A stretch of DNA of 63,754 bases, the filler included, from Candidatus Fermentibacterota bacterium (lineage in GTDB: Bacteria > JAFGKV01): the NCBI GenBank assembly GCA_016928395.1. It is 6 parts of 6 records of this genome, joined end to end, with 100 filler letters (N's around TTAATTAATTAA, not from the genome) between each part and the next. Parts side by side here need not be neighbours in the genome. Positions count along the whole stretch, not along the records: positions 29,249 to 53,221 come from JAFGKV010000292.1; 5 more parts are not named here. One strand, 5' to 3'. The notes below the pieces were generated by a model that worked only from the letters and a program-made list of their open reading frames with translations, had not been told where the DNA came from and searched no databases. The translations under genes were made by a program, and so were the position numbers. This document shows, in pieces, positions 32,261 to 61,286 of the stretch (within the stretch, counting starts at the first letter, position 1; each line of letters opens with the position of its first letter).

Positions 32261-34522
32261 GTGTCGCTGCCTCACATGGTTTCTGGATCCGTGCTCCTCG
32301 CGGTCACAATGACCCTTCATGCAGCGCCCCACCGGGAGGTTGACACCCTCGCCCCAGATCCGGTCCTCGCCAGTCCACAGATACGTACGCTGATCGTACG
32401 CAGCGATGAGAATTCCACGGCGCTGGACGTAGAGATCTTGGGTTCGCCCGGGCGACAATGGCCCGCGGAGATCGGCATAGGCCTCGTGGCTGTGGCTCCC
32501 CGTGGCCGGATCATGGCCAGACTTGACGCCGTTGACGCCCACGTTCTCGGGCAGGCTGACGACGTTGCGCGTATCCTCCCGGCAGACTTCCCGGAGGACC
32601 TCGTCCTTGTCGGGCCGCCGGGGATATGGCGGGAGCTGCGAGTCGTGCGCGTCGCAATTCGACCACAGTGGGGCGAAGGTGAGAGCGCGAGAGTCGCGCG
32701 ACGGGTGAGAGTCACCATCATCAATGCCGGCGGTCAGGGCGTAGCCGAACTGGATCATCCTGCCCGGCCTGTCTCGCTGGTGTGGGATCGCCTCTTCCGG
32801 GCCCATGTGCTGAACTACGAGGCGTTTCAGCCTCCCCGGCTCACCATCGGCACGGGCCCACGCTACATCGTGATCTCGCGATCGCGCTTCACGGAGCACA
32901 CACCGGCCTTCGTGGAGTGGAAGACTCGACAAGGATACGGGGTCGAGGTCATCACGCTCGAGGACTTGGGGTATACCGATCCCTTTGACCGCAACGCCAT
33001 CAATGCCACCAAGCGCTGCATTATGGAGGCATATACCTCCTGGGACCCGCCCCTGGAGTTCGTGCTCCTGACGGGTGACATGTACGCCGGGGCGCCCGCC
33101 GGTTCCATCTACAGCAAGCAGTTCACTGACATTCTTGGCTACTATCCCCTGGAGCGCTACTACGATCAGTGGTACGCGTTGGTCGACGGGCCGGACTTGT
33201 TACCCGATATCATGCTCGGCCGATTTCCCGACAGCAATGCCCAACGCATGGGATACCAGCTTGGCAAGACGGTCGGATACGAGATGAGCCCCCACATCGA
33301 AGGAACATGGCAACGCAATTCAGTCATGACCGCCATCCACAGCAACCCAACCCATCCGACCATCCTGACCAAACAGGCCGTCTCCGATAGTCTCGTAGCC
33401 TGGGGCATGACAGTCCACGAATTCTACTGCGGCCAGGCTATCCCTGCCCGCATCATTCCCGCGATCAACCAGGGAGTTGCCTTCTACAACTACCGAGGAG
33501 AGTGGTGCGGAGAGAACGACTGGGGAGGCACCTTCTACCCTAACGACGCCGCGTACATCAGCAATGTGAACAAGTTGGGCGTGTGGACGGCCATAAGCTG
33601 CAGCACCGCGGATTTTGTCTTCAACTACCCCATCAACGCCGAAATTCTCCTGCGATTAGGCCATGACAATCCGGCCGCCCCTCGAGGGGCGGTGGCGGTA
33701 GTGGGCTCCCAGGGCTACACCCACGCCAACTTCAATAACCCCTTGGACTGGGCCTTCTACCACGCCTTTACCCATCAAGACGCCACGCTCTTGGGCGAGG
33801 CCTTCATGGCCTCCAAGATCTACGTCGCATCCGTCACCGCCCCCAGCGACAGCCAGACTACCACTTTGTGCGAGTATACCATCCTTGGCGACCCCTCGCT
33901 GCAGGTGTGGACCGATGTGCCGACGCCGCTTTCCGTTGCCATTGACCCGCCATCAGTGCCCGAAGGGATGACCACCCCGGTGACCCTCTCGGTTACCACC
34001 GACGCTGTTTCGCCGGTCTCCGGCGCCTTGGCCTGCCTCCGGCGCGGGGGGGATGTCTACGTCTACGGGTACACCGATGATTCTGGCGCGGTGACCCTCC
34101 CGGTGATGCCCACGGAGACTGGAACCTCCGGCGTGCCTGTCGACGTCACCATCACTGCTGTCAACAGGATCCCCCACTACGGCACCCTCCCGGTGCTCAC
34201 CAGCAGGCCCGCACCCCCGGGCAATGTGACGGTTGTCATCGACCGTGATGCCCGGCTGAAGATCACCTGGAACCCAGTGCTCTCCGATGAACGAGGTCTT
34301 CCCGTGGTCATAGACCGCTACGAGGTCTCCCTTGATGACGACGCATTCGTCGCGGCAGATCGCCCCGCGGCTTCCGCGGGAACAACGACGGCTATCTCCT
34401 TTGCCACCACCTCGCCAGGCACCTTCGTGCGCGTGGTCGCAGTCTCACGCGAGGGCCGAAGGTCGCACCCAAGTGAACCCGAGGGCGCCGTCTCCCTACC
34501 GCTGGCCATGCCCGTGAGGTAA
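32261..34522 (+). CDS. C25 (gingipain-like) family protein with propeptide and an FnIII-like tail
   Basis: FVEWKTRQGY, FVLLTGD, DQWYALVDG.D.LPDIMLGRFP, NYRG, ISCSTADF, YTILGDPSLQVW. Confidence 0.85.
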   Translation: MSLPHMVSGSVLLAVTMTLHAAPHREVDTLAPDPVLASPQIRTLIVRSDENSTALDVEILGSPGRQWPAEIGIGLVAVAPRGRIMARLDAVDAHVLGQADDVARILPADFPEDLVLVGPPGIWRELRVVRVAIRPQWGEGESARVARRVRVTIINAGGQGVAELDHPARPVSLVWDRLFRAHVLNYEAFQPPRLTIGTGPRYIVISRSRFTEHTPAFVEWKTRQGYGVEVITLEDLGYTDPFDRNAINATKRCIMEAYTSWDPPLEFVLLTGDMYAGAPAGSIYSKQFTDILGYYPLERYYDQWYALVDGPDLLPDIMLGRFPDSNAQRMGYQLGKTVGYEMSPHIEGTWQRNSVMTAIHSNPTHPTILTKQAVSDSLVAWGMTVHEFYCGQAIPARIIPAINQGVAFYNYRGEWCGENDWGGTFYPNDAAYISNVNKLGVWTAISCSTADFVFNYPINAEILLRLGHDNPAAPRGAVAVVGSQGYTHANFNNPLDWAFYHAFTHQDATLLGEAFMASKIYVASVTAPSDSQTTTLCEYTILGDPSLQVWTDVPTPLSVAIDPPSVPEGMTTPVTLSVTTDAVSPVSGALACLRRGGDVYVYGYTDDSGAVTLPVMPTETGTSGVPVDVTITAVNRIPHYGTLPVLTSRPAPPGNVTVVIDRDARLKITWNPVLSDERGLPVVIDRYEVSLDDDAFVAADRPAASAGTTTAISFATTSPGTFVRVVAVSREGRRSHPSEPEGAVSLPLAMPVR

Positions 34523-34525
34523 GGG

Positions 34526-37500
34526 ATGCACCGGGGACACCTGACGAGCTACGGTTTCCGATGCATCGAACCTATCCGGCCCGGCCTTCCCTGCCGACCT
34601 GTCCTCATTCTATCAATGATCTCTGTGTTGCTCGCCGCGGAGGCGGAACCCGCGACCTTCACCGTAACCTCAACCGCCGCGACGGGGGCGGGCTCGCTCC
34701 GCGAAGCAATTACCTTGGCCAATACCGCCACCGGCCTCGATACCGTGGCCTTCAGCATACCGGGGGCCTTACCCACGATCATCAGCCTTACCACGACGCT
34801 CCCGTCCATCACCTCACCGCTCTATCTCGACGGCTATACCCAGCCGGGCTCTGCACCGGCCAACGGGTCATCTCCTGCGATCATCGGTGTGCAGCTCCAG
34901 GGAAGCGCAGGAGGCACGGGCCTCAGCGTGTCCTCAGCAGGGGGCACCGTGCGAGGCCTTGCCATCGGAGGTTTCATCACCGGTGTCTCGATCAACGGTG
35001 CACCGGGAACGCTCATCGAGGGCAATCATATCGGCGTCGATGCCGCGGGCGCGTCGGTCCTGCCCAATGGGGTTGGAATCCGCCTACTTTCCGGCGGGCA
35101 CCAGATAGGAGGGACTCTCCCAGAGTCCCGCAACCTGATATCCGGCAATACCCAGCACGGAATAGACATCCAGACCGGCGACTGGGATCCCGAGCCGGGA
35201 GAGACCAACTCCATCATGGGCAACTACATCGGCGCCGATGCCACGGGTGGAGGCGCCCAGGGAAACGGGGGATGTGGGATCGTGGTGACCCGCGGTGCTG
35301 ATACTTCGATAGGGGGCATCGCTCCCGGTGCAGGGAATGTCATCGCTTTCAATGGAGGACCCGGCGTGTACGTTGCTCACGGTATACGTAACTGCATCCT
35401 CTCCAACGCCATTTTCGACAATGGCGGTCTCGGCATCGACCTCCTGTGGGACTACTGGGATACCGAACCTGATGGCGTGAACCCCAATGATGTCGGCGAC
35501 GGTGATTGGGGGGCCAATGAACTACAGAATTTCCCGGTGCTGACCAGCGCCCAGAGCGCAGGCTCCTCGCTCATCATCACCGGATCGCTGAACAGCCTGC
35601 CCAACGCGGATTACCGCGTAGAATTCTACAGTTCGCCCTCTCCGGATGAGGCAGGCTACGGCGAGGGAAACGCATTCGTATGCGCCACCCAGGTGACCAC
35701 GGATGCTTCGGGCTCGTGCGAGTTCGTGGCCACTTCGGCCCTCTCGCCGGCTCTGGGATCATTCATCTCCGCGACTGCCACCGATGCGCTGAATAACACA
35801 TCGGAGTTCAGCCGTTGCCTTCCGTTTCAGGGCTCAACCCTCGTCACCACCTCCCTGGATTCCGGACCGGGCTCCCTGCGCAACGCCATCGCGACTTCAA
35901 ACCTCACGCCGGGCCTCGATACGATTTCCTTTGGCATCCCCACCGCCGGGGCCCACGTCATTCGCGTCCAGTCTCCTCTTCCCCCACTGGAGGACCGCGT
36001 GGTCATCGACGGGTATACCCAGAACGGTGCCACGGAAGCAACCGCGGAGTCGCCCGCCGCACTCATGATCGAGATCGATGGAAGCCTCTTGGGCGGCAAC
36101 GCCAGCGGACTCACCATCAGGGCCGGCCCGTGCACGATACGGGGGTTGGCTGTGGGAGGATTCCCGTGGTGCGGCATACTCTCGGAACACAGCGATTCCA
36201 GCATCATCGCGGGAAACCATCTGGGAGTGGATGGCACGGGCACGGCATTGCGGGGCAATGGGATCGGGATATACATCCAGGATGGAGCGGGCACCGTGGT
36301 CGGAGGATCCTCTCCGGCGACGAAGAATGTGATAAGTGGGAATGCCCTTGCCGGTCTTATCCTGGCAGGTTCGATGGATAGCGCCGTCGGCAACTATGTG
36401 GGCACCGCGTCCGACGGCACCTCGCCCCTGGGGAATGGCATTGGAGTCATCCTTGGAAAAGACGAGATTCTGGGAGGCGGTGAACCCATCTGCAGAAACG
36501 TGATCGCAAGTAACAACAGCCACGGAGTGGTGGCTGCGCTCTCGGGCAGCGCCGTGACGCACAATTGGATTGGCATGACAATCGGCGGTGGGGCAGTGGG
36601 GAACGGGGGCGTCGGAATCGGTGTCGGGATAGAATGGCTTGATGATACCCTCACCGGGCGACTCAGCCTCAGAGCTCCTTCGGAAGACGGAGTGAGAAAC
36701 ACTATCAGGGAGAACATAATCTGCGGGAGTGCAGGGCTGGGCATCGATCTCTATCCCCCTGGGCCGGGCATCAATGATGCCGGCGATATCGATACCGGCG
36801 CCAATGCGCAGCAGAACTACCCGATTCTCTTGCAGGCACTGGACAACCAGGGTGTGACTGTCCTGTCAGGTGAACTGCAGAGCGCCCCCAACGTGGAATT
36901 CACCATAGACTTCTACTGCAATGACCTACCCGATCCCACCAACCACGGCGAGGGTCTCGTCCCTTTGGGTTCCGCGGCCACACTCACGGATGCCCAGGGC
37001 AACGGCACGGTGTCGCTGCAGGTGCCTTCCGGCCAGCTCCAAGGCCGTTTCGTGTGCTGCACCTCCACCGACCCTGAAGGCAACACCTCGGAGTTCGGGC
37101 CATGTCTGGCGATCGGCGGCTCGGGGGCCGTCACGACCACTGCGGATACCGGTGTGGGTTCTCTCCGGATGGCCATCGCGGCCGCGAATGCCAGCAATGA
37201 CATCTCTACCGTGACCTTTGCGCTGCCGGGCCCCGGGCCGCACACCATCCGGCCGACGTCACCACTTCCCCCGCTCCTGCGGTCAATCACCGTCGATGGC
37301 TACACACAGACGGGCGCACAGGTCGCCACTGACTCTGAACCGGCGATCCTCAAGATCTATGTCGACGGAACCCTGGCAGGAGAGAACGTCGACGGGCTTA
37401 CACTTGCTGGAGAGGCCCCAGTCGTCTCGGGGATCGTGGTGACTGGCTTCTCCGGCTGCGGCGTCCTCATCACCGGCAGCGGGGCTGCGGTGCGCGGATC

Positions 37501-38944
37501 CTGGATCGGTGCTCCCATGCCGTCGATGGTCGCAAACGGCGGCGACGGCATCCGTATCGAAGCGTCAGGTGCCACAGTAGGAGGCATAGACCCCGCCGAT
37601 CGATGCGTGGTCTCGGCCAATCTGGGTGACGGGATTCGGATCTCGGGTACTCAGGCCACGGGAAACATCGTCATAGGGAGCCATATCGGTACCGATCCCT
37701 GGGGTACTTCCGCCCGCCCCAACGGTGCAGCCGGCATTCGCCTATCCGGAGAAGACAATGCTATCGGCAACGGGCGGCCTGATGGCCGCAATGTCATCTC
37801 CGGCAATACCGGTGAGGGAGTAGTGATCGAGAGAGCCGGCAATGTACTCCGGGGCAATTGCATCGGTGTCGACGCCACCGGATGTCGCGCCATGGGCAAT
37901 GCAAGCCACGGGATACTGGTTTCCTCGGCAGACGATGCCGTCATCGGCGGTGATGCGGCCGGTGACGCGAATATCATCTCGGCCAATGGTGGAGCGGGAG
38001 TCAGCATTCGCTACGGCGGTTCGGCGGACAATCGTGTGAGCGGAAACTTCATTGGAACAGATGCTGCCGGTAACCCTGTGGGCAACGTGGCATCGGGTGT
38101 GTCCATCCGAGGCGCCCAGCGCACGACCGTCGGTGGCGCGTCGCCGGGTCTGGGCAATACCATCGCCTTCAACGGCGGCGCGGGCATCGAGGTGGTCACG
38201 GGTTTGGGCAATGCCTTCACGTGCAACTCCATTCATGACAACGTAGGTCTCGGCATCGATCTGGGACCTTCTGGCGTCACGCCCAATGACCCCTTCGACG
38301 TGGACACGGGCGCCAACATGCTGCAGAATTTCCCAGAGCTCGCCGGCGCCCGGTTCGATACGGGCGGTACACTGGCCGTATGGGGCATACTCCGTAGCAC
38401 ACCGTCGGAGGTCTTCACGGTACAGTTCTTCTGGTCTCCCACCGCCGACCCCTCCGGATACGGCGAAGGAGCCCACTGGGCTGGCCAATGCGTAGTGACG
38501 ACGGGCTCAAACGGGCAGGCCGACTTCGATGTCTCCATCCCGATTGACGGTCTTGTTCATGGAGCGACGTTGAGCGCCCTCGCCACCGGCGCTTCGGGCA
38601 ATACCTCGGAGTTTTGCCTGTCCGTGCCGATAGAGGGGCTTCCTGCAACGGCCACCCCCGCGGTGCAGGCCTTCGATCTACGGCAGAACGCACCCAACCC
38701 ATTTTCCAGTGCCACAGCCATAGAGTTCAGCCTGCCTGCCGCAGCGTTCGTGACTGTTGATGTCTTTGATGCCGGCGGCCGGGACATCCGGTGCCTGATC
38801 GCCTCGCCCATGGACACCGGAGCTCATACCGTGACCTGGGATGGAGCCGGGCATGACGGCATGCCGGTCGCACCCGGCCTCTACATATGCCGCCTTCAGG
38901 CCGGGGAACGCCGTGCGACACGGCCGATGGTACTGCTGCGATGA
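34526..38944 (+). CDS. Large secreted beta-helix repeat protein (three CSLREA-like modules) with FlgD-Ig tail
   Basis: Three units starting GSLREAI/GSLRNAI/GSLRMAI with GNxIG, NxISGN, GLGIDL, GANxxQN[FY]P, NTSEF; tail PNPF...WDG..PGLY..PMVLLR. Confidence 0.85.
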   Translation: MHRGHLTSYGFRCIEPIRPGLPCRPVLILSMISVLLAAEAEPATFTVTSTAATGAGSLREAITLANTATGLDTVAFSIPGALPTIISLTTTLPSITSPLYLDGYTQPGSAPANGSSPAIIGVQLQGSAGGTGLSVSSAGGTVRGLAIGGFITGVSINGAPGTLIEGNHIGVDAAGASVLPNGVGIRLLSGGHQIGGTLPESRNLISGNTQHGIDIQTGDWDPEPGETNSIMGNYIGADATGGGAQGNGGCGIVVTRGADTSIGGIAPGAGNVIAFNGGPGVYVAHGIRNCILSNAIFDNGGLGIDLLWDYWDTEPDGVNPNDVGDGDWGANELQNFPVLTSAQSAGSSLIITGSLNSLPNADYRVEFYSSPSPDEAGYGEGNAFVCATQVTTDASGSCEFVATSALSPALGSFISATATDALNNTSEFSRCLPFQGSTLVTTSLDSGPGSLRNAIATSNLTPGLDTISFGIPTAGAHVIRVQSPLPPLEDRVVIDGYTQNGATEATAESPAALMIEIDGSLLGGNASGLTIRAGPCTIRGLAVGGFPWCGILSEHSDSSIIAGNHLGVDGTGTALRGNGIGIYIQDGAGTVVGGSSPATKNVISGNALAGLILAGSMDSAVGNYVGTASDGTSPLGNGIGVILGKDEILGGGEPICRNVIASNNSHGVVAALSGSAVTHNWIGMTIGGGAVGNGGVGIGVGIEWLDDTLTGRLSLRAPSEDGVRNTIRENIICGSAGLGIDLYPPGPGINDAGDIDTGANAQQNYPILLQALDNQGVTVLSGELQSAPNVEFTIDFYCNDLPDPTNHGEGLVPLGSAATLTDAQGNGTVSLQVPSGQLQGRFVCCTSTDPEGNTSEFGPCLAIGGSGAVTTTADTGVGSLRMAIAAANASNDISTVTFALPGPGPHTIRPTSPLPPLLRSITVDGYTQTGAQVATDSEPAILKIYVDGTLAGENVDGLTLAGEAPVVSGIVVTGFSGCGVLITGSGAAVRGSWIGAPMPSMVANGGDGIRIEASGATVGGIDPADRCVVSANLGDGIRISGTQATGNIVIGSHIGTDPWGTSARPNGAAGIRLSGEDNAIGNGRPDGRNVISGNTGEGVVIERAGNVLRGNCIGVDATGCRAMGNASHGILVSSADDAVIGGDAAGDANIISANGGAGVSIRYGGSADNRVSGNFIGTDAAGNPVGNVASGVSIRGAQRTTVGGASPGLGNTIAFNGGAGIEVVTGLGNAFTCNSIHDNVGLGIDLGPSGVTPNDPFDVDTGANMLQNFPELAGARFDTGGTLAVWGILRSTPSEVFTVQFFWSPTADPSGYGEGAHWAGQCVVTTGSNGQADFDVSIPIDGLVHGATLSALATGASGNTSEFCLSVPIEGLPATATPAVQAFDLRQNAPNPFSSATAIEFSLPAAAFVTVDVFDAGGRDIRCLIASPMDTGAHTVTWDGAGHDGMPVAPGLYICRLQAGERRATRPMVLLR

Positions 38945-40602
38945 GAGGACGGCATGTGTTCCCGCATATCCACGCTCCGACTGACCCGCCGACGCCGCCG
39001 ATACGCGGGCGCCTTGAAAGCAGGCTCGTGGCGATCATTCTCGCCTGCACGGCCATGGCCTATGCGGGAGCGTGGTGCGAAACGCCCCCGTACGCCCTGT
39101 ATTCACCCAATGAGCAACAAGACGGACGGTTTGGGTGGTCCATCGCTCCGGTGGACACTGCCGTGGTGGGTATGGCCGGCATCGTGGTCGGAGCGCCCTA
39201 CGAGGAATCCGACGGGGTAGCGGAGGCAGGAATGGCCTATTGTTTTCGAGCCGCAGACGGCCTTCTCCAAAGCGAACTGAGGTCTGACGCACCACAGGTG
39301 CGCGGGCGCTTCGGCTTCGCCGCCGCGAGCATAGGAGATATCGACGGTGATGGCGAGACAGACCTGGCCGTAGGCGCGCCCGGTGAAAACTCGGGGGACT
39401 ACCCCGCCGCGGGCCAGGCATACCTCATCAGCGGTGCATTCGGGACGAGTATCAGAAACCTGGATTCACCCGGAGCGGAACCCGCGGGGTACTTCGGTTG
39501 GAGCCTCCTCGCCTTGGCTGATATCACCGGAGACGGCATCGGCGACATCGCGGTGGGCGCACCCGGCGAGACCCCCGCGCCGTCCCGCTGCAATGTAGGG
39601 CGGGTCTATCTCTTCAGCGGCGCCACAGGCGAGTGTTGTGGCGCACTGGATGCGCCAGTGTCGCTGGCAGACGGTCGATTCGGTGCCGTTATGGCGGGAC
39701 TGCGCGCGGCGGACGGGTCACCCTTGATCGCGTTCGGCCTGCCCACTGCCGGCGACTCTTCCTCGGGGGAAGTGTTTATCATGGGCGTCACCGGTCAGGT
39801 CATCCAATGCCTGGTGCCTCCCTCGCCCGCTGCAGGCGCACGGTTTGGGAGTGCACTGGCACCCTGTCACGACATTGATGGGGATGGATTCCCGGATCTA
39901 CTCATTGGCGCACCCGGTTCCAGTGATCGCGGCCGTGCCTATGCCTTCAGCGGGGCCGCCGGCATCCTATTGACGGAGTTCTCGCCTCCCCCCGATGTGG
40001 GTGGGTTCTACGGCCGCTCGGTGGCGCCCGCGGGCGATATCGATGGTGACGGCTGCGCGGAGATTGCTGTAGGCTATCTGGTGGACGCGCCGGGTGAGGG
40101 ATGGCGGGGCGGCGTGCATGTGGCCCGAACCGGCGGGGAGCATGTGAGAGCGCTCACTGCTCCCGAGGCTTCAGGCAGCAGTTTTGGATGGTCACTCGCC
40201 GCGCTGGGCGATCCCGGTGGTGACGGCCAAGACGATCTCGCCATCGGCGCCTACGGAGCGGCGGGGAGTGCCGGGTTCCATGAGGCGGGGTGTCTATTTG
40301 TCCTGAGCCCCCAATCCGCCCCGTATCGGCCACAGCCCCGGGTAGTGCGTCTTCTGGGGCCATGGCCCAATCCTGCCCGCGATGTGGCCCGCATCCTCGT
40401 ACAAGGCTCCCACGGAGACGAGATACGAGTGACTCTGCGCGATGCGGCCGGCCGCGCAGCTCCTGCATCTGCATGCCGCGTCGAGGGCAAAGGCGATGAC
40501 TACGAACTCCGTCTCTCCCCCACCCTCCCCTCAGGATTGTACTGGCTTTGCGCCTCCTCCGGGCGATGCGTCACCACCAAGCCCTTGCTGGTGATCAGGT
40601 AG
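38941..40602 (+). CDS. FG-GAP / integrin-alpha-like beta-propeller protein with T9SS-like tail
   Basis: Repeated FG.S...DIDGDG..DL.VGAPG; tail PWPNPA...SGLY..KPLLVIR; ATGA overlap at 38941. Confidence 0.88.
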   Translation: MRGRHVFPHIHAPTDPPTPPIRGRLESRLVAIILACTAMAYAGAWCETPPYALYSPNEQQDGRFGWSIAPVDTAVVGMAGIVVGAPYEESDGVAEAGMAYCFRAADGLLQSELRSDAPQVRGRFGFAAASIGDIDGDGETDLAVGAPGENSGDYPAAGQAYLISGAFGTSIRNLDSPGAEPAGYFGWSLLALADITGDGIGDIAVGAPGETPAPSRCNVGRVYLFSGATGECCGALDAPVSLADGRFGAVMAGLRAADGSPLIAFGLPTAGDSSSGEVFIMGVTGQVIQCLVPPSPAAGARFGSALAPCHDIDGDGFPDLLIGAPGSSDRGRAYAFSGAAGILLTEFSPPPDVGGFYGRSVAPAGDIDGDGCAEIAVGYLVDAPGEGWRGGVHVARTGGEHVRALTAPEASGSSFGWSLAALGDPGGDGQDDLAIGAYGAAGSAGFHEAGCLFVLSPQSAPYRPQPRVVRLLGPWPNPARDVARILVQGSHGDEIRVTLRDAAGRAAPASACRVEGKGDDYELRLSPTLPSGLYWLCASSGRCVTTKPLLVIR

Positions 40603-40843: not shown

Positions 40844-42649
40844 ATGAGCGAGGAGCGTGTCCTCGTCATCGACGACGATCCGCATGTGCTGCAGGCTATT
40901 CAATACGCATTCGAGCGGGGAGGATTCGAAACGCTGGTCGCCTCGGATGCCGAGCTGGGCCTGGAGATTTTCAGGGATGAACGCCCCAGCCTTGTGATCA
41001 CCGATCTTCTCCTGCCGCATACCGATGGCTTCGAGATTGTCCAGAGCATACGCTCGGATCCGATCGCCCGGAACACGCCGGTTATCATCCTCAGCGCCCG
41101 CACCCAGGAACAGGACAAGCTCCGGGGACTAGAGCTGGGTGCCGACGACTATGTGACCAAGCCCTTCAGCCCTACAGAACTGGTGGCGAAGGCAAGGGCC
41201 GTGCTTCGCCGGGCCACTGCGTATCGCGAACGCCGTCGCGTTCCTGGTGTGGGCGGGCCTTTCGCGGCCGAAGGGCTGGAACGGCTGGCGGGGCTCAGAT
41301 TCGCGGACTATGTTGTCGGAGTCGGCAATCGCTCGGCATTCGAGGCCGCCCGCGCGGCGGCCGAAAGCCCCGGCAACCGGTTCAACCCTCTGTTCCTCTA
41401 TGGCGGCAACGGCCTCGGTAAGACTCACCTGGTGTGCGCCATGGCCAATGAGATTTACGAAGTCAATCCTGGCGCGCGAATCCTGTACGTCAGCTCCGAG
41501 GTATTTAGCACGCAGATCGTCGATGCGTATCGCCAACGTCAGGTCGAGCAGTTCCGGCGGGAATACGTGGGAGCCGATGCCTTGATCGTGGATGACATTC
41601 AGTTCCTGGCGGTGTCGCCCAGCCTGCAAACCGTCGCTGCCACCATCCTGGCTGCCATGCATGAGAACGGCAAGCAAATCGTCATCTGTTCCGACCGGCG
41701 GCCCGAGGAACTCCAGACCATCGCCGCGGAGATCAGTGCGCGATTCGCCCTTGGCCTGGTCGTAGAGATCGACAAGCCTGATGTCAGCCTCAGAACTCGT
41801 ATTCTCCTCCACAAGGCGCGACAAAACGGGTGGCCTCTGCACGAGTCACTTCTTCTCTACTTAGCCAACCACGCCGACTCGGACGTACGCACGCTGGAGG
41901 GGATAGCCAAGCGAATGGTCGCCATGCAGACCTTCGCCCGAATCAAGCCTGACACCGCTCTGATAGACAGGTTGCTGGAGGAGGTAACCCTGCGGGAAGA
42001 GGAGCACGACCGCAGTAATGACGACGACGGAGAACCCGTGCCCGGATCTGAAGCCCGCTTGGCGTCGTTTAACGAGGAGTTCAACAGGGGAGCCATCGTG
42101 CGAGCCCTGGATACCCCTGAAGGTATCGCCCAGCGCACTCCGCGGTCCCATGGAAGACCAGTAGTAGTGCTGGGCAGGTCCGGGCCCTTGGTCATTGACA
42201 CGGTGGAGGCCCTGATTGGACAGAAGGACAGAGTCTTCACCATTCCCGAGGGAGAGCGCTGGGCCTGCATGGCCCATGCCGCCTCCACGCGACCGAAGTG
42301 GATCGTGGTAGGCACCAACCGGTGGAGTCAGGGCGATGAGTTGACGCTGGCGTTGGAGTGCGGCGCCGAGCCATCCTTCGTCGTAGTAATCGATAGTGGG
42401 CATCCCGACGTGCTGGAGGCGAGACGACTCATCCTTTCGATTCCCAGCAGCAGAGGCATGGCCGTGGTCGTGCTGGTGAGCTCCATCACCCAGACCACGT
42501 CGGAAGCGACTCGCCTCACCATAGCCCGCAGCATGAGGCGGCTATTCCGCGTCGGTGAGGACATACCTGTTCTCGCCAGCGGCGTCATTGCTCCAGATGA
42601 AAGTCGCCGGTGGCTGGACGCTGCTCTGGCCCGAAGCCGTCCCCGATAG
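40844..42649 (+). CDS. Receiver domain - DnaA-type AAA+ domain - degenerate small-GTPase-like domain fusion
   Basis: REC: VIDDD, ITDLLLP, IILSA, DDYVTKPF; AAA+: FADYVVG.GN, FNPLFLYGGNGLGKTHL, LIVDDIQFL, SDR, ARF, DVRTLEG; no DnaA domain IV; AGGAG RBS. Confidence 0.85.
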   Translation: MSEERVLVIDDDPHVLQAIQYAFERGGFETLVASDAELGLEIFRDERPSLVITDLLLPHTDGFEIVQSIRSDPIARNTPVIILSARTQEQDKLRGLELGADDYVTKPFSPTELVAKARAVLRRATAYRERRRVPGVGGPFAAEGLERLAGLRFADYVVGVGNRSAFEAARAAAESPGNRFNPLFLYGGNGLGKTHLVCAMANEIYEVNPGARILYVSSEVFSTQIVDAYRQRQVEQFRREYVGADALIVDDIQFLAVSPSLQTVAATILAAMHENGKQIVICSDRRPEELQTIAAEISARFALGLVVEIDKPDVSLRTRILLHKARQNGWPLHESLLLYLANHADSDVRTLEGIAKRMVAMQTFARIKPDTALIDRLLEEVTLREEEHDRSNDDDGEPVPGSEARLASFNEEFNRGAIVRALDTPEGIAQRTPRSHGRPVVVLGRSGPLVIDTVEALIGQKDRVFTIPEGERWACMAHAASTRPKWIVVGTNRWSQGDELTLALECGAEPSFVVVIDSGHPDVLEARRLILSIPSSRGMAVVVLVSSITQTTSEATRLTIARSMRRLFRVGEDIPVLASGVIAPDESRRWLDAALARSRPR

Positions 42650-46072: not shown

Positions 46073-48910
46073 CTACTCGCTGAAGATGGCTTTGGGCCTG
46101 ATGACGCCTGCCCTGATCTGGGTGCGCGGGAACAAGGTCGCGATTCGGCCCTCCAGGCGGGGGAGAAACTCCCGGTACCGCGGGTTCATGCCCACCCGTC
46201 CGAACCCTTCGGTGAGGATCACGGCCAGCGGAAGGTCTTCATCGCCGGTCACGCCCACTGCCAGCTCGCGCCCGGAGAACTCCCGCCAGGTCATGCTATC
46301 CACCGACGGCGCGATGATGCCCCGCGCGCCTTCTTCGACGCATCGTCGCAGGAAAGCGCTGTCCGCGGGCTCCAGTGTCGCCACGATGACGTCGCGGGAG
46401 AATCTGGGGGTTTTTCCGTGCAATTGCAGGACTCCCCAGGTCTCTCGGCCGAATCCGATGGCCCCAGCCAGTACCTCTCCTTCGCCGGCGATAGTGGCAG
46501 CTCGGGTCTGTTCCACACGCTCCACCGTGCCGTAAACCAACGCGCGACACGCCCGCGGTTCCGTGTCGCACTGCATCACCACCGTCCCCTGCTCAAGGTC
46601 AATCGCGGCGATTCTACCGGAGATTGGCGCCCTGACGGCCGGGCGCCCACCGGTGCCGCCCACGATCTCCTGTCCCTCCCAGAGAAACTCTCCCAAGGCG
46701 ACCTTCAGCATGTGGAGAATCCGCTTTGGCCGAGTTCCAAGGATCTTCGCGACGTCGATGGTGACCGGTTCGGTCGTGTGCTCCTGAATCTCCCGCAGGA
46801 TGATGAGACCCCCTTCTTCGATCCGAACCACTCTGCCGCGCACCGGCGATATGCAGAAGAACTCCACCCGCAGCAAAGGTTCCCGACCGCGAAACACACG
46901 CTGACCGACAGCTACCGTATCGCCTTCCTGAACCAGCAATCCTTCGCGAAGAGCCTCCGACGACAGCGTTCGATGATACCCCACCAGTTGAGGGATGTTC
47001 ACTATGAACACCCGGGGCGGGGCCAGCGTGTTTTGGCCCACGACGCGCTCCGGGGTGACACGCTCACCTTCGCTGACCAGAATCTCCCCGTCATAGGGCA
47101 GTTCGCGGACAATGGTGAAGGGCCCCTTTTTCGGAGCGGCCGAAGGCCGAACCAGGCCAAGGGCTGGTCTACGGGGGCTTGTCGGAAACTCCCATGCCTC
47201 CGAGGCAATCAGGGGAGATCCGCAGAATCCAACACCCCGACCGCGGCAGTCGAACAACACGGGAAGGGATGAGTCCAGGACAACATGCCCTCCTTTGCGA
47301 TACAGGGAGATTCCTGGGGCCGGCGTCACCTCCCAGTGCCCCGGCGGCGCCAGCATGACCTCGTTACCACGGAGCCGATAGGTCTTCCCGGATCGGCGAT
47401 CCACCGCCGACACAACGACCCGCGTGGAGTTCATTGCCCCGGTGGGCGCCACTACCCAGGCGATTTCTCTGAGGCACTGGCGTTCGAAAAACTCCAGGGC
47501 ACCCGCTTCATCCCGCGAGGCCAGAATCCCACAATGAGGGCTCCAGAACGAGCCGTCCACGGCGATTTTGGTAACGCCAGTGGGTAAGAATCCATCCTCT
47601 ACGATCCTCAGAACCTCTTTGTCGGAAGCGTGGGAGAAAATGCCGCCGGCCGCAATCACAAGGTCGATATCAGAAATGCGAAATCGTGAGGATGATCCCA
47701 CCGGGGTCAGAGTCTCCTGGAATCGATCAACAGCCGACCGCTTCAGTATCCTCTCCGCCATGCCGATCCGCGCCTCGGAGAACGCCATGATCTTGTGCTG
47801 CTTCCAGGCCTGCGCGATCCCTGCCAGCCCGATTGCCCGCTCGATGGCCTCCTCGGTCTCATCAGAGGGAATGTAGGTGGGATTGAGCATCTTTCCTGCG
47901 GCGTAGTCGCGGAGATCGCCTTCGCTCACCCCGGGAACATGGGGCAGGATCTCGCCTACCCCGGCAGTGGCGATGACATTACAGATGGAGTAGCTCATGC
48001 CGATATTGGCCGCTACGGTTCGCTGGCAACTGCCGCGAATCCAGGAGAACACGTCGGTGGTGGCGCCGCCCATATCGAACATGACGATGTTCTGGCTATG
48101 CCGCCGGGCGTATCGCGTAAGGATTCGCTCCACAGCCAGGGGCGTCGGTATGATATCCGCAGCAACCCAGGGCTTCAGTTGGCCATAGCCCGGGGCTCGC
48201 TCCATCACCGTGTGCATGAAGATGTCGAGAATGGCATCCTTGGCGGGCTGTGGATTCGTCTCGTGCAAGGTGGGTCTGACATTGTCCACTACATGCACCT
48301 CGAAGTGTTCGGCTGTTACTTGCTGCACGTATGCCCGTGCAGCGGCATTGCCGCAGAAGACCAGCGGAATGCGGCCCGAGGTATCGAACTTGGGCCGCGG
48401 GTGTGCCAGGCTCAGAGTCTCGGCAAGCCGCACCAGGTTGGCAATATCCCCGCCATCAACCCCGCCGGCCATGAGAATCAGGTCGGGGCGCAGGTCACGC
48501 ATCACGGCCATGCGTTCCACGGTGGAGAGACGGTCATCCACGGTAAAGGTCCGGAGCACGACGCCGCCCGCCCCCTGGGCTGTGAGTTGCGCGATCTTGC
48601 CTGTGTCGGTTGACGTAAGGCCCACCACCATCATCTGGAGACCGCCCCCGGCCGAACTGGTGGTCAGATACGGAAAGCGAGGATTGCCATGCTCATCGAG
48701 CAGTTCCTCGCCGGTGTGCTCTCCCAGGGCTCGAGCGGCGGCCCGCACTCCCTCGCACACATTCTCCTGGGGCGCCTCCACGGTTGTTGGGACGGTGGCC
48801 GCGCCGCGTACCTCGTATGAGGAGCCGCCCCTCAGCAGCAACCCCTTGGTCGTGGTGCTGCCAATATCGGTGATGAAGACAGCGTGAAAACCGTTACTGG
48901 GCACGCGCAC
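46073..48910 (-). CDS. GlmL/MutL-like (glutamate mutase L family) ASKHA ATPase fused to a C-terminal domain of unknown function
   Basis: TDIGSTTTK, TSSAGGGL, LMAGGVDGG, DMGGATTDVFS, RTVAANIGMSYS; C-terminal ~350 aa with V.EG..V / SPV.G.V barrel-sandwich-like motifs, LTEGFG, TQIRAGVIRP. Confidence 0.8.
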   Translation of the reverse strand: MRVPSNGFHAVFITDIGSTTTKGLLLRGGSSYEVRGAATVPTTVEAPQENVCEGVRAAARALGEHTGEELLDEHGNPRFPYLTTSSAGGGLQMMVVGLTSTDTGKIAQLTAQGAGGVVLRTFTVDDRLSTVERMAVMRDLRPDLILMAGGVDGGDIANLVRLAETLSLAHPRPKFDTSGRIPLVFCGNAAARAYVQQVTAEHFEVHVVDNVRPTLHETNPQPAKDAILDIFMHTVMERAPGYGQLKPWVAADIIPTPLAVERILTRYARRHSQNIVMFDMGGATTDVFSWIRGSCQRTVAANIGMSYSICNVIATAGVGEILPHVPGVSEGDLRDYAAGKMLNPTYIPSDETEEAIERAIGLAGIAQAWKQHKIMAFSEARIGMAERILKRSAVDRFQETLTPVGSSSRFRISDIDLVIAAGGIFSHASDKEVLRIVEDGFLPTGVTKIAVDGSFWSPHCGILASRDEAGALEFFERQCLREIAWVVAPTGAMNSTRVVVSAVDRRSGKTYRLRGNEVMLAPPGHWEVTPAPGISLYRKGGHVVLDSSLPVLFDCRGRGVGFCGSPLIASEAWEFPTSPRRPALGLVRPSAAPKKGPFTIVRELPYDGEILVSEGERVTPERVVGQNTLAPPRVFIVNIPQLVGYHRTLSSEALREGLLVQEGDTVAVGQRVFRGREPLLRVEFFCISPVRGRVVRIEEGGLIILREIQEHTTEPVTIDVAKILGTRPKRILHMLKVALGEFLWEGQEIVGGTGGRPAVRAPISGRIAAIDLEQGTVVMQCDTEPRACRALVYGTVERVEQTRAATIAGEGEVLAGAIGFGRETWGVLQLHGKTPRFSRDVIVATLEPADSAFLRRCVEEGARGIIAPSVDSMTWREFSGRELAVGVTGDEDLPLAVILTEGFGRVGMNPRYREFLPRLEGRIATLFPRTQIRAGVIRPKAIFSE

Positions 48911-53221: not shown

Positions 53222-53321
53222 NNNNNNNNNNNNNNNNNNNNNNNNNNNNNNNNNNNNNNNNNNNNTTAATTAATTAANNNNNNNNNNNNNNNNNNNNNNN
53301 NNNNNNNNNNNNNNNNNNNNN
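53222..53321. other. Artificial contig-join spacer
   Basis: N run + TTAATTAATTAA + N run. Confidence 0.99.
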
Positions 53322-53729
53322 CCCGCCCCCCCCCCCCCCGAACCCGTGACGAGTGGGGATGGGCGTGCTCCCATGGACGCCACGGCCCGACAACATCGGG
53401 TCTGGTGTCCGCGGGAATGGTTTACATCGGGGAGAAGAAGCTTCGATGAAGAGGGAGACGAGACGAGAGCGGCTGCACGCTCTCGGGGGGGATACGATGC
53501 AGGGCGCCCCCCGCGCTTCCTGAAGACAGAGTAACGGCGTGTGCTCCCAGTCCGCTCCCATGATGGCCTCCTAAGATCGCAGGCACAGGCTGCGTATCTC
53601 TCATCTGGTGCAAGGGTACTCCAGCCCACACGCGCTGTCAAGGGCGCCTCCCTCCGGCATTGCCGCGGTGAGTATCACCCCGCACATTGGGGCGTGTTTC
53701 GACCCTGGCCCCTGACCGGAGGTGTGACC

Positions 53730-55823
53730 GTGAGACTCCTGCTCGCTCTGGTGATCCTTTCGACAGCCACTGCCCGCGCACCATCGGAGACACCGTCCAT
53801 CCCTGGGAATGTGGCCACCACGGGAGATCGGCCGTCGGCACGGCAGGCCGAGGGCCGTGGCGAGGGACTCCCCGACCGCCGGGATTTTCCCCTGGATCCC
53901 AGCCGCTACCTCCCCATGCCACTGCCCGATCCCCGCGCGAGGCCGGCGTCACCCCCGGGCGAGAGCCGGGCGGTCTCCTACGACATGCGCACGGGCCAGG
54001 AAGTCCAGTGGCAGGTCCCCGCGCCCACGGGCCTCGACGCCGCGCGGGTCGAGGGATGGCCCGGCCGGGAAAGCCCCAGGGAGTTCGGGGAAGGTGTGCC
54101 CGAGGTTCGCAACTTCACCGATCTCGAGCTCGTCAACGACCCCGAGCTGTTTCCCTGGCGCGTCAATGTGAAGGTGTTCATGCAGTTCGGGTCGTCCTAC
54201 TACGTCGGCTCCGGCGTGCTCGTTGATCCGTATCACGTACTGACGGCGGGTCATTGCGTCTTCGACCATGGCGGCACAGACGACTGGGCCGATGACATCA
54301 CCGTGGTGCCGGCCTATGAGAACGGGAGCCAGCCATTCGGCAATGCCGGCGCCGTGAGCCTTCACTCCTGGACCGGGTGGACCCAAGACGGCAGCTACGA
54401 TCACGATATGGGCGTGATCGATTTGGATAGACCCATCGGCGCACTGACCGGGTGGCACGGCTATGGGTACAACAACAGCAACTCGTTTTTCACCGGAAAC
54501 ACCTTCCACAATCCCGGTTATCCCGCCGCCTCGCCCTACAATGGCCAGTACATGTACTATTGGTACGGGGATTTCGACCTGGCAGGCACCTACCAGCTCA
54601 CCTTTTTCAAGACGGCCTATGGCGGCCAGAGCGGCAGCGGGGCCTACCACCTCAGCGACGACCAACGCACGGTCTACGCGGTGCTCTCCAATGGCTGGTC
54701 GCTGTGGACCAATGATGTCAGAATCACGGAGTCGAAGTTTAGCCACATCGGCGGCTTCATCGCCGAGGATACGCCGGCGGCCTATGATCTCATCGCGATG
54801 GAAACCAACATCGCTCCCTCGTCGGTCACCGCGGGCAACGCCTTGATCTCCATGGACTACCTCGTGCACAACTACTCCTCGGCGTCGTGGAGCGGGTCAG
54901 TACCGGTGACCGTCTACCTCTCGACGAACAACGACATCTCGCCTGCGGATACCCCGATTCAGGATCACTCCTTCTCCTGGAGCTTCGGGCCGATGTCGTC
55001 GGTGCGAGTCACCGTGAGTACCCCGCCGGCCATACCCATCGCCACTCCCTCGGGGAGCTACTATGTCGGCATCATCTTGGGCGTCTCCGATGCGAATGCC
55101 GCCAACAATGAGAGCGATGGCCAGGAGGCCAGCTATGTCTGGGTGAACGGCGGGCCAGATCTGATGGTGCAGAACCCCGGGACAGCGCCGTCCACCATCA
55201 TCGCGGGAACCTCCACGATCGCATCCTGCACGGTGCGAAATCAGGGCGGCAACTCAGCCGGTGCATCCATCCTGCGGTACTATCTCTCCTCCAACACGAC
55301 CTACGATGCCGGTGATGCCTACCTGGGCTACGACTCTGTCGGTTCCCTGCCTGGAGGCGGAACCAGCTCTCAGAGCGAGACCCTGGCCATTCCTGCGGGG
55401 ACGGCAGGGGGAACCTGGTATCTGCTCTTCCATGCGGATGCGGAGAGCCAGGTTTCCGAGCTGAACGAAAGCAACAATGTGACAGCCCTTGCGGTCACGG
55501 TTCAGCCGGAGAACATCCCCCCCGACGCCATCACCGACCTTGCCGCTACGGGCGCCGCCCCAGATCTCCTGCTCTCATGGAGCGCTCCGTGGGACAATGT
55601 GGGCGTGGTCGGCTACTGGGTGTACCATCATGCCTCCCTCCACGACTTTGGCACCCCGCTGGTCTACTTGAGCGGCGCGTCCACCCTCTCCTACTCAGTG
55701 CCCAATGCCTGCGGAGACCCCGCATCAAATCACTTCTACGATGTCCGGGCCCGAGATGCCGCGGGCAATGTGGCCGCCTCCTCCAACTGGGTCGGTGAGT
55801 TTGACTTCTCGGTGGATCCCTGA
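53730..55823 (+). CDS. Secreted trypsin-like (V8-type) serine protease with CARDB-like and FnIII-like domains
   Basis: Triad LTAGHC / HDMG / GGQSGSG; PGYP; PDL...VRNQG...SELNESNN (CARDB); GTG start after GGAGG. Confidence 0.88.
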   Translation: MRLLLALVILSTATARAPSETPSIPGNVATTGDRPSARQAEGRGEGLPDRRDFPLDPSRYLPMPLPDPRARPASPPGESRAVSYDMRTGQEVQWQVPAPTGLDAARVEGWPGRESPREFGEGVPEVRNFTDLELVNDPELFPWRVNVKVFMQFGSSYYVGSGVLVDPYHVLTAGHCVFDHGGTDDWADDITVVPAYENGSQPFGNAGAVSLHSWTGWTQDGSYDHDMGVIDLDRPIGALTGWHGYGYNNSNSFFTGNTFHNPGYPAASPYNGQYMYYWYGDFDLAGTYQLTFFKTAYGGQSGSGAYHLSDDQRTVYAVLSNGWSLWTNDVRITESKFSHIGGFIAEDTPAAYDLIAMETNIAPSSVTAGNALISMDYLVHNYSSASWSGSVPVTVYLSTNNDISPADTPIQDHSFSWSFGPMSSVRVTVSTPPAIPIATPSGSYYVGIILGVSDANAANNESDGQEASYVWVNGGPDLMVQNPGTAPSTIIAGTSTIASCTVRNQGGNSAGASILRYYLSSNTTYDAGDAYLGYDSVGSLPGGGTSSQSETLAIPAGTAGGTWYLLFHADAESQVSELNESNNVTALAVTVQPENIPPDAITDLAATGAAPDLLLSWSAPWDNVGVVGYWVYHHASLHDFGTPLVYLSGASTLSYSVPNACGDPASNHFYDVRARDAAGNVAASSNWVGEFDFSVDP

Positions 55824-56013
55824 TCGCGGCAGGATTCGCCGTGGGAGCCTACGGAAGTGGGCGAACGGGGAAATCTGAGGAAATTCTGAGGCGAGCATAC
55901 CATACTCTTGGTGAGTTCAGGTTACCGCCGTGGGCATCGGATGATTTTGCATCGATGCGCGGCGGTTTTACCCCGCCGGACCAGGCTCTGGTACGGCTTC
56001 GAAGGAGGTTACG

Positions 56014-58197: not shown

Positions 58198-58254
58198 GGG
58201 AGCGGGCGCGCAGCCGCGGCGGGAAGCAGGTGAGGAGATAGGGGAAGGCCCACA

Positions 58255-58330
58255 GGGTTCAGGGTTCGGGGTTCAGTGCGGCCGCTGAGGTCGCGGGGCT
58301 CCCTCAGATTTCTCAGGGTTGAGAGTACAG
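58255..58330. repeat. Dispersed ~76-bp repeat, copy 2
   Basis: Reverse complement of 12-87 with few substitutions. Confidence 0.85.
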
Positions 58331-58347
58331 TGCAGCGGGCGGGCACA

Positions 58348-58447
58348 NNNNNNNNNNNNNNNNNNNNNNNNNNNNNNNNNNNNNNNNNNNNTTAATTAAT
58401 TAANNNNNNNNNNNNNNNNNNNNNNNNNNNNNNNNNNNNNNNNNNNN
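58348..58447. other. Artificial contig-join spacer
   Basis: N run + TTAATTAATTAA + N run. Confidence 0.99.
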
Positions 58448-58615
58448 GTCAGGAGAGCCTGGTGCGCCTGCCTGCCGCAGGCAGGTAACGAAAGGCGCTC
58501 TCGTCGCGGTGCAGATTCAGCGGAGGCTGATGCCCGCCTGCGAAGTAGGCTGACCTCCGATTGGCGACCGATTCAGGCTTTCTCCTGGCACTCTGACCCC
58601 ATGAGCTCATGTGAC

Positions 58616-58649
58616 AAAAGAAGCCCCCCGGGAAGCCGGGAGGCTTCTT
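58616..58649 (-). terminator. Rho-independent terminator
   Basis: AAGAAGCCCCCCGG-GAAG-CCGGGAGGCTTCTT stem with a U-tract on the minus strand, just after the stop at 58666. Confidence 0.8.
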
Positions 58650-58665
58650 CGTTTCGGGCCGATGT

Positions 58666-60333: not shown

Positions 60334-60617
60334 TGAAACCTCCTTCCGCCGAGTCCAGTCAACGAGGGCGCACGGGATCACAATCCCGCGAAGGCACGAT
60401 GATGCCGCTCGGCAACGGGATCCGCGTGGGTTGCACACCGACGCCCGAAACCGGTGACGCCCCGAGTATGCAGGTATGGGCAACACTCCTCACAATGTAC
60501 TCACAACTGGGAAATGTTCATGAAAAACCTAGGATGGGCAGGGAAGATTGCGGATTGGGGAGAGTCGGACCCTGGCGGGGCCAGGTATTGTCTATTGGGA
60601 TTCGAGCGTGAGGATCG

Positions 60618-60859
60618 ATGAGCGGGCGCGTCTACGCCCAGGCAGCCGATGCCCGCGTGGAGCACCTCCGGCTGCAAGGTGGGCGACAGGAGGTCGACTC
60701 TATCGTGGGGCGCCCTGACCTGCGCGTGCTGGGCATCGAGGTGAAGCTAGGCAGATCGCCGACGATTTGCTGGATGCGATCGTCGTTCACCCAGGCCCCC
60801 AAGCCTACCGTCTGCCAGATGGCATTGCAGTCGTGCCAGCAGCGCCCCTTGGGCCGTGA
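60618..60859 (+). pseudogene. Decayed C-terminus of a DUF4143-type (AAA ATPase-associated) protein
   Basis: RVYAQAADARVEHLR..GRQEVDSIV..PD.RVLGIEVKL continues in another frame at 60761 as DDLLDAIVVHPGPQAYRLPDGIAVVPAAPLGP*. Confidence 0.72.
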
Positions 60860-61286
60860 GCTTGAGCGAAGGAGAGCCGGGAGTAACTCCTGAGACACGA
60901 GCGAGGCGGGCCTCGATTGTGCTATCTGCCGCGCTCTCAACCGCACGGACTGTGCGCCGCTTCCAGTGGGCGGGCCGGCGGTGGGCGCTGAGACTGTCGC
61001 AACATGCGTGAGGACACGTTGATCCTGAAGTCACCCAGAGATCTCGTCAGACCAGGTTGCCACGGTCAGGCACACGAAGAAGGCCAGCCACGGCCACCGT
61101 CAGAGCTCGATGACATGGCGCGTCGAGAGCAGGAGTCCTGATCGGGAAAGAGTTCGAAAACCGGCGTGTGCCGGAACGGGAGGAGATTCGTGTGCCACGC
61201 GGCACGAGACGTCCCGCCCCTGCTCCGACATTCCGCGCGCCGCAATCGTCCGGCGTTCTCCTGGTACTCTGACCCCAGGCAGCTCC

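Follow-up and report, generated by a model that had tools for sequence, protein, structure and literature searches.

A response regulator of Candidatus Fermentibacterota with a DnaA-type ATPase and a predicted pseudo-GTPase domain in place of the DNA-binding domain

The locus and the encoded protein

Investigation of a 63,754-nucleotide stretch of DNA from the genome of Candidatus Fermentibacterota bacterium JAFGKV01 (the window, meaning the whole stretch analysed) revealed a gene for a response regulator whose output part probably consists of a DnaA-type AAA+ ATPase and a linker-tethered, nucleotide-free pseudo-GTPase with a fold nearest to that of YsxC/EngB. The open reading frame (ORF) occupies positions 40844..42649 (+) with the stop codon included, and its coding part (40844-42646) gives a protein of 601 amino acids, according to the ORF list and the translation. 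The contig that carries it has 23,973 bases and corresponds to window positions 29249-53221; positions 1-29248 and 53222-63754 are N or lie off this contig, and adjacency across the 29249 and 53221 borders is therefore not readable as genomic linkage. The protein was divided as follows:

40844..42649, + strand: whole gene, receiver / DnaA-type AAA+ / predicted pseudo-GTPase (ORF list, translation)
40859..41194, + strand: receiver (REC), residues 6-117 (PF00072, E 1.6e-27)
41297..41767, + strand: DnaA-type AAA+ core, residues 152-308 (PF00308, E 2.5e-49, profile positions 6-162 of 162)
41768..41995, + strand: AAA+ lid (DnaA domain IIIb), residues 309-384 (TIGR00362 match)
41996..42046, + strand: acidic flexible linker of variable length, residues 385-401 (model confidence, alignment)
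42047..42646, + strand: C-terminal domain, predicted pseudo-GTPase, residues 402-601 (AlphaFold2 model, structure searches)

The receiver is intact as a domain of the two-component type, the acidic pocket, the conserved Ser/Thr and the Lys all being present; its phospho-acceptor pocket is made up of D10/D11, D54, S84 and K106, each at least 90% conserved (alignment A1), and its best NCBIfam receiver matches are of the OmpR/PhoB type. The full-length homologues have an N-terminus that is identical in its start, MSE.R.LV.DDDP.

The AAA+ part has the Walker A motif GNGLGKTH (residues 188-195), the Walker B motif IVDDIQF (248-254), an SDR box (283-285) and, in the lid, a sensor-II-like DVRTLEG (347-353) with invariant R349 and G353. 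K193, D250, D251 and D284 are invariant in nine paralogues, the canonical DnaA among them. The DnaA model TIGR00362 matched residues 151-386 over profile positions 108-342 of 437 (E 2.6e-73), with a score of 247.6 bits that is lower than the equivalog cut-off of 343.9, the match being limited to domain III, and the match to the Hda model was far weaker (E 2.5e-22, NCBIfam). Domain IV of DnaA, the Bac_DnaA_C family (PF08299), was not detected by Pfam in the 601-residue protein, while the canonical DnaA of the same genome, which has PF08299, is encoded elsewhere, on contig C126. An earlier note on this DNA had proposed that a pseudo-GTPase has taken the place of the DNA-binding domain, with which these results agree.

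Between the lid and the C-terminal domain, hereafter the tail, residues 384-400 have a predicted local distance difference test score (pLDDT) of <50 in the full-length model, and the alignment is gap-rich and unconserved there; the acidic string EEEHDRSNDDDGE lies at residues 385-397 (41996-42034).

Conservation of the tail and loss of the GTPase motifs

The earlier note had described the tail as resembling a catalytically dead small GTPase of the MglA/CvnD type, on the basis of several short strings, every one of which was found in the translation of 40844-42646 (+). These are VVVLGRSG at residues 440-447 (42161-42184), KWIVVGT at 485-491 (42296-42316), FVVVIDSGHPDVLEARRLI at 512-530 (42377-42433), AVVVLV at 540-545 (42461-42478), LFRVGEDIPVLASGV at 567-581 and PDESRRWLDAAL at 584-595. 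They are more than a chance pattern, because the tail is common to 12 further proteins with 38-81% identity (13 proteins in all) and its alignment (A2, 12 rows) has 21 invariant columns; A2 holds 12 of the 13 proteins, P0008 being left out as a near-duplicate of P0007. All full-length members among those 12 have the receiver / DnaA-ATPase / tail layout. Regarding the extent of the domain, its existence was borne out, whereas the start that had been put at 42150 (residue 436) is too late and the true start lies near residue 402: residues 402-431 form two helices with a strand between them ahead of the VVVLG strand, with F413 invariant, and since this part belongs to the domain, the domain spans approximately 42047-42646.

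Four segments of the tail were distinguished:

42155..42184, + strand: strand b1 and former P-loop position, RPVVVLGRSG, residues 438-447 (model secondary structure)
42242..42265, + strand: IPEGERWA, residues 467-474, the most conserved loop, just before strand b2 (alignments, model)
42296..42325, + strand: KWIVVGTNRW, residues 485-494, strand b3 and the first part of the switch-II position (W494 invariant, no DxxG)
42536..42553, + strand: RRLFRV, residues 565-570, invariant block ending helix a4 (alignments)

At the former P-loop position G444 is invariant and S446 is at least 90% conserved, and there is no GK[ST]. P468, G470 and W473 are invariant in the IPEGERWA loop, which would correspond to the switch-I position by the order of elements in a G domain. 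R566, L567, F568 and R569 are invariant in the RRLFRV block, which was used as the search pattern for the metagenome scan described below.

Motifs were counted in 23 members of the tail family; two fragments lacking the anchor were not counted and the unrelated repeat protein P0026 was excluded. The G1 motif GxxxxGK[ST] and the G4 motif [NT]KxD were detected in none of the 23, and none of the members from the added genome and metagenome loci has intact G motifs. A bare GK[ST] tripeptide is present in three members, in none of them at the P-loop position. DxxG (G3) occurs in nine members at scattered, non-conserved positions and does not occur in the window protein; the conserved sequence at the G3 place is VG..RW. 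The lack of GKT and NKxD, from which catalytic inactivity had been proposed for a single protein, extends as a loss of G1 and G4 to 23 of 23 members.

The conserved residues at these positions could also be taken to mean that the tail is alive as a second sensor, with a non-canonical pocket that binds a nucleotide or another phosphorylated ligand. The polar residues G444, S446, D452, T453, D517 and S518 are conserved at or near the C-terminal ends of strands b1 and b4, which in a G domain form the nucleotide site, and they may line one shared pocket. However, neither the P-loop lysine or Ser/Thr nor a guanine-specificity motif is present in any of the 23 members, and the gap between b1 and a1 in the model consists of three residues only (444-446), which makes a ligand-binding tail very unlikely.

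Predicted fold and structural relatives

The AlphaFold2 model of the tail, built from alignment A2, is one compact domain with a pLDDT of 90.4 and a predicted template modelling score (pTM) of 0.89. An a0-b0-a0' extension is followed by the elements b1-a1-b2-b3-a2-b4-a3-b5-a4-b6-a5, where the a1-b2 loop has 15 residues and b2-b3 is a hairpin; the full-length model gives the same elements. The predicted model thus has the G-domain topology of a six-stranded sheet and five helices, the strand directions resting on structural alignments.

Foldseek against the Protein Data Bank (PDB) gave 14 matches at E ≤ 0.001. The best row is YsxC (1sul_A, E 7.9e-5, TM-score 0.57); below it in the list come EngB, Nog1, Der, Sar1, Ras and MglA (ranks 17-18, E 1.3e-3), then G-alpha, EF-Tu, Toc34 and Era. 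All rows in which the chain can be identified from the title are G proteins, and some rows are unnamed chains of large assemblies. VIA-align, which is independent of Foldseek and was run over 48,161 chains, found 67 chains at Z ≥ 8, with Ras, Sar1, Rheb, Arf, Rag, FeoB, EngB and MglA in the top rows. Ras, Arf, Sar1 and EngB have Z 9.7-10.5 in this search, including NRAS (Z 10.5, root-mean-square deviation (rmsd) 4.2, 145 residues aligned) and EngB 3pqc_A (Z 9.7, 169 aligned); MglA 5ymx_A has Z 9.2 with 150 aligned, and pG1 of p190RhoGAP-B, a known pseudo-GTPase, has Z 8.5 with 119 aligned.

A second structural comparison covered the 997 best chains of Foldseek. Among these, YsxC 1sul_B reached Z 13.0 with an rmsd of 3.5 Å over 175 of 195 residues, and the alignment runs from model residues 1-192 against chain residues 1-195, so that the EngB-type N-terminal extension is covered. 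The YsxC structures 1svw_A (Z 12.6) and 8qua (Z 12.5) follow, with 165-175 residues aligned over the YsxC set, and the next family, KRas, has Z 11.3 with 143 aligned. In a search with protein-language features, used as a lead only, all ten named neighbour clusters were GTPase families of the MMR_HSR1 type (score 0.87-0.88). A prediction of a two-copy complex of the tail, made without controls, scored 0.00 and speaks neither for nor against dimerisation.

A small-GTPase (G-domain) fold is thus supported for the modelled tail by Foldseek, by VIA-align and by the second comparison, as had been anticipated, and the closest known fold is of the YsxC/EngB type, the N-terminal extension included, because YsxC stands apart in the second comparison. 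With the fold present and the catalytic and binding motifs absent, the assignment of the tail as a pseudo-GTPase of the class-i type is supported at the level of the model.

The specific affinity to MglA suggested by the earlier note was not supported. In that proposal the tail would be a dead GTPase of the MglA/CvnD type that docks on partners of the roadblock/MglB type and belongs to a polarity or cell-cycle module. MglA is indeed among the structural matches (Z 9.2, 150 aligned; Foldseek E 1.3e-3), but YsxC/EngB is closer by about 4 Z units (Z 13.0, 175 aligned) and also covers the N-terminal extension, and hhalign gave a probability of only 0.2-0.4% against MglA. Together with the gene neighbourhoods considered below, this makes the proposal as a whole highly improbable.

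The relationship to a ribosome-binding GTPase, the closest relative by fold, also bears on a further alternative, that the tail is a functional substitute for domain IV and binds nucleic acid, either DNA or rRNA, the latter in the way that EngB binds the large subunit of the ribosome. The tail lies at the position of the DNA-binding domain of DnaA, and R527, R566, R569 and R588 are invariant. Against this, neither Pfam nor NCBIfam revealed a motif or family known to bind nucleic acid, and net charge is not conserved; general nucleic-acid binding was set aside as a deduction from charge, as there is no consistent charge signal when the isoelectric point of the domain spans 4.75-9.62 over 12 members. 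The probability that the tail binds nucleic acid is accordingly judged to be very low.

A fold of the von Willebrand factor A (vWA)/integrin-I type was also considered. The idea came from the Mg-chelatase subunits BchD/ChlD, in which an acidic linker joins an AAA+ domain to a vWA domain, and from an LDSxSP loop in the tail. No vWA chain was among the structure-search rows listed and the a1-b2 loop fits a G domain better, and this fold was set aside.

Distribution of the tail family

When 1.84 billion cluster representatives were searched by profile without a limit on length, 15 proteins were returned at E ≤ 0.001, all of them Eisenbacteria-like, of which 14 belong to the family. DnaA-type sequence is present upstream of the tail in ten of these 14; the other four (P0014, P0017, P0022 and P0024) are too short. 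A stand-alone or differently fused tail was not seen among the 15 clusters, four members being too short to judge. In P0020 (617 amino acids) the place of the receiver is taken by a membrane helix at the N-terminus and a disordered region, followed by the same DnaA-ATPase and putative pseudo-GTPase.

All three genomes of the phylum that were examined (the window genome, G000, as well as G001 and G002) have four copies of the tail each. A tree of ten of the 12 copies, one not being extractable and one being dropped as too short, contained four orthologous pairs between G000 and G001, each with a support of 100/100. A scan of 185,579 species genomes gave five loci, with the tail only in two metagenome-assembled genomes, one of them labelled Eisenbacteria and the other Fermentibacteria, and a metagenome scan added four short contigs with the tail. 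The tail family is tiny, real and constrained, and its distribution is narrow.

The constant association with the ATPase might indicate an intramolecular gate, in which the tail packs on the AAA+ module or the receiver and controls assembly. The tail is always found behind a DnaA-type AAA+ domain where the upstream sequence suffices (the ten of 14 members above), and invariant residues are present on both of its faces. Yet the full-length model has no confident packing between domains (pTM 0.41), the linker is disordered and of variable length, and six DnaA-like paralogues of the same genome work without a tail; a gating role is very doubtful in view of these points.

Gene neighbourhoods

Fifteen loci were examined, four each from G000 and G002, three from G001 and four from metagenomes. 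In eight of them (L009, L010, L011, L047, L045, L043, L143 and L144) the gene for the tail-containing protein has a histidine kinase gene as its neighbour, and synteny is kept across genomes. Three gene orders recur: diaminopimelate epimerase, kinase, REC-DnaA-tail gene, amidohydrolase and subtilase (three genomes); a hybrid kinase with Hpt, the REC-DnaA-tail gene and a PAS protein (two genomes); and the REC-DnaA-tail gene followed by a kinase that binds cyclic nucleoside monophosphates (G000 and a metagenome contig).

The earlier note had suggested checking whether homologues lie beside roadblock or DUF4388 genes; none of the 15 loci has a roadblock, DUF4388 or small-GTPase neighbour, which counts against a tail of the MglA type. 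In favour of such a tail, contig C39 of the genome does carry one MglA-like gene together with two roadblock and two DUF4388 genes. There, genes encoding roadblock, DUF4388, roadblock, Arf/MglA-like GTPase and DUF4388 proteins lie on one strand (L051, 2772-6006); the MglA-like gene is the only one found in the genome, and the cluster is unlinked to all four paralogues of the REC-DnaA-tail gene.

In the window, the gene is flanked upstream by a gene for an FG-GAP protein, as in G001, and downstream by one for a DUF4140/DUF4139 protein. Three consecutive genes for likely secreted proteins precede it at 32261-40599 (+); they encode a C25 peptidase, a beta-helix protein of 1472 amino acids that ends in a FlgD_ig-like domain, and the FG-GAP protein, which has a weak match to a sorting domain of the type IX secretion system (E 0.0089). 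At 46076-48910 (-) lies a gene for a protein of 945 amino acids, the first 479 residues of which match the MutL family (PF13941, glutamate-mutase-accessory-like); no family match was obtained for its remaining ~465 residues.

DnaA-type ATPases and their association with MglA-like genes

The DnaA ATPase model has 14 matches in G000 at E ≤ 0.001. At E ≤ 1e-20 there are 11, 8 and 12 matches in G000, G001 and G002, respectively, versus 0-2 in each of 28 other genomes. The genes of this lineage-specific expansion in G000 are on contigs C299, C108, C150, C311, C218, C126, C78 and C20, the last of which corresponds to window positions 29249-53221. The 14 matches comprise one canonical DnaA with Bac_DnaA_C, four proteins of the receiver / DnaA / predicted pseudo-GTPase type, two shorter receiver-DnaA proteins, MshEN-DnaA proteins on C108 and C299, and two IstB-like transposition helpers; three adjacent proteins on C299 give four matches, since one carries two DnaA-type stretches. 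The inputs of the DnaA-type proteins are a receiver or MshEN (of the cyclic di-GMP receptor type), and the DNA-binding domain of DnaA is present in one copy only.

On C299, four adjacent MshEN genes, three of them with a DnaA-type ATPase, lie at positions 74939-84338 of the contig (L012, 4940-14339; also L140, 14062-14835), with a prepilin peptidase gene immediately upstream and the gene for a giant protein containing SprA_N nearby. The last of the four encodes ~1308 amino acids, some 950 of which have no family match.

In two of the 28 other genomes (G006 and G020) an extra DnaA-like gene was detected inside a cluster of MglA-like, roadblock and DUF4388 genes. In the phylum of one of the two, which is not that of the window genome, the DnaA-like gene is present in 18 of 19 genomes, and at 16 of 18 loci of this phylum its immediate upstream neighbour on the same strand is an MglA-like gene. 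The MglA-linked DnaA-like AAA+ genes (L119, 4967-6934, in G006; L121-L138) encode no DNA-binding domain. The pair in G006 sits among genes for DUF4388-TPR, TPR-roadblock, CheR and CheD proteins, and in G020 (L120, 2856-7310) REC-DUF4388, MglA-like, DUF4388 and DnaA-like genes form one cluster.

Cooperation between G domains and DnaA-like proteins, which these 16 loci and the G020 cluster fit, can be counted in favour of an MglA-type tail. However, the window protein is not a nearer relative of the MglA-linked DnaA-like proteins than canonical DnaA is: for these MglA-linked proteins BLAST gave 28.6% identity (E 1.8e-26) to the window protein and 32.9% (E 1.2e-37) to the canonical DnaA of the genome, and they were rejected as the closest relatives of the window AAA+ domain. 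A description of the link between MglA and DnaA-like proteins, or of a receiver-DnaA-G-domain protein, was not found within the full-text literature collection searched.

Interpretation and proposed mechanism

Regarding the function of the window protein, the favoured reading, considered here to have a reasonable probability, is a response regulator with a DnaA-type AAA+ ATPase as output and, tethered to it, a nucleotide-free pseudo-GTPase closest in fold to YsxC/EngB. The tail itself is most likely a docking module for a partner, as the protein-binding role of the class-i pseudo-GTPases suggests by analogy, and because every nucleotide-binding motif has been lost from a G-like fold.

In the proposed mechanism, a histidine kinase would phosphorylate D54 of the receiver, and phosphorylation would release or promote ATP-dependent self-assembly of the DnaA-like AAA+ module. 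We infer oligomerisation of this module, which retains both Walker motifs, the SDR arginine and sensor II. The tethered pseudo-GTPase would then bring a partner to the AAA+ assembly, or be presented by it, with docking through the conserved surface, including the switch-I-like loop.

Several observations weigh against this reading. The fold comes from a prediction on a shallow alignment of 12 rows, the TM-scores are moderate (0.57-0.62) with an rmsd of 3.5-5 Å, and the identity to any GTPase is 9-15%. The nucleotide-free state is deduced from the sequence, and the full-length model (pTM 0.41) gives no confidence to the arrangement of the domains. Pfam and NCBIfam (E ≤ 1) named no family on the tail, the sole Pfam match being PDE8A_N at E 0.23. 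Der/EngA was obtained only at E 0.19-0.32 in a profile search against the PDB, and phmmer gave one match there, to a Bms1/Tsr1 G domain (E 0.26). The hhalign probability for the tail was 1.3% with an EngB profile of 15 sequences, 0.2% with an MglA profile of 22 sequences, 0.4% with the MglA-like protein of this genome and at most 2.4% with 16 ORFs over the genome's GTPase-family matches, whereas in the control the EngB and MglA profiles matched each other with 63.7% (E 6.7e-5, 152 columns). In the non-significant EngB alignment b1, the P-loop position and a1 are in register, with hydrophobic residues opposite the Gly-Lys-Ser of EngB. Of the two features by which the earlier note had proposed to judge the tail, the Ras-like fold is present in the model and a GTPase profile match is absent; refutation in the sense of the note, which called for both to be lacking, is thus not reached. 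At the level of the loci, conserved neighbours besides kinases were not found in the 15 examined, and the copy in the window is an orphan with no kinase gene adjoining.

If the pseudo-GTPase reading is correct, the locus would provide a bacterial pseudo-GTPase whose signalling context is defined, namely a response regulator that in several loci adjoins kinase genes. The eleven DnaA-type domains of this genome at E ≤ 1e-20 point to repeated reuse of the ATPase module of the replication initiator as a signal-output device. A partner of the tail, if found, would show what a DnaA-like assembly does besides opening the origin, and would also test whether pairs of G domains and DnaA-like proteins, joined in one protein here and encoded in operons elsewhere, represent a general module.

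A broader idea is that DnaA-type ATPases and small G domains form a recurrent, undescribed signalling pair, operonic in one phylum and fused, with a nucleotide-free G domain, in Eisenbacteria, where the pseudo-G domain of a receiver-controlled assembly would fill sites at which a real G protein meets its partners (such as roadblock, GAP or effector sites, or the ribosome site of EngB). This idea is unlikely as it stands. Were such a pair to exist, two-component signals might feed into cell polarity, the assembly of ribosomes or the control of replication, and the 8-12 DnaA-like paralogues per genome linked to receivers or MshEN would represent a lineage-specific system built on the initiator ATPase.

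Comparison with known systems

Compared with DnaA, the window protein has the same AAA+ core and lid, both Walker motifs, the SDR box and sensor II included, but a receiver stands in for domains I-II and the putative pseudo-GTPase for domain IV. Hda is similar in that the DNA-binding domain is absent from both proteins, and the window protein is nearer to DnaA (E 2.6e-73 versus 2.5e-22). With MglA, which acts with MglB/roadblock proteins, the tail shares the general small-G fold (Z 9.2), whereas there is no profile link, the structural match is poorer than that of YsxC and the 15 loci have no roadblock neighbours.

The tail resembles the class-i pseudo-GTPases, such as pG1/pG2 of p190RhoGAP, CENP-M and the N-terminal domain of AAGAB, in having a G fold without G motifs. 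These are eukaryotic and unrelated in sequence and context, whereas the tail belongs to a bacterial response regulator, and its nucleotide-free state is read from its motifs. The concept and definition of class-i pseudo-GTPases are taken from two articles (PMC12490416, PMC10211241), and their use as protein-binding modules from these and a third (PMC5593906). Almost all descriptions of pseudo-GTPases concern eukaryotes (PMC12490416, PMC10211241).

The best whole-domain match, extension included, is to the YsxC/EngB/YihA ribosome-assembly GTPases (1SUL, 1SVW, 8QUA, 3PQC). The tail differs from these in its low identity to them (10-12%), in the absence of the G1, G3 and G4 motifs, in the silence of TIGR03598 on it and in its fusion behind an AAA+ domain, EngB being a stand-alone protein; the genome keeps a separate true EngB (TIGR03598, 167.5 bits).

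In regulators of the NtrC type, of which the loci of the comparison genomes include one example, a receiver governs an AAA+ ATPase that oligomerises, and a targeting domain comes third. The window protein appears to follow the same three-part logic, with the difference that its AAA+ domain is of the DnaA/initiator type and not of the sigma-54 activator type, and that the third domain, a helix-turn-helix in NtrC-type regulators, is here a predicted G-like fold.

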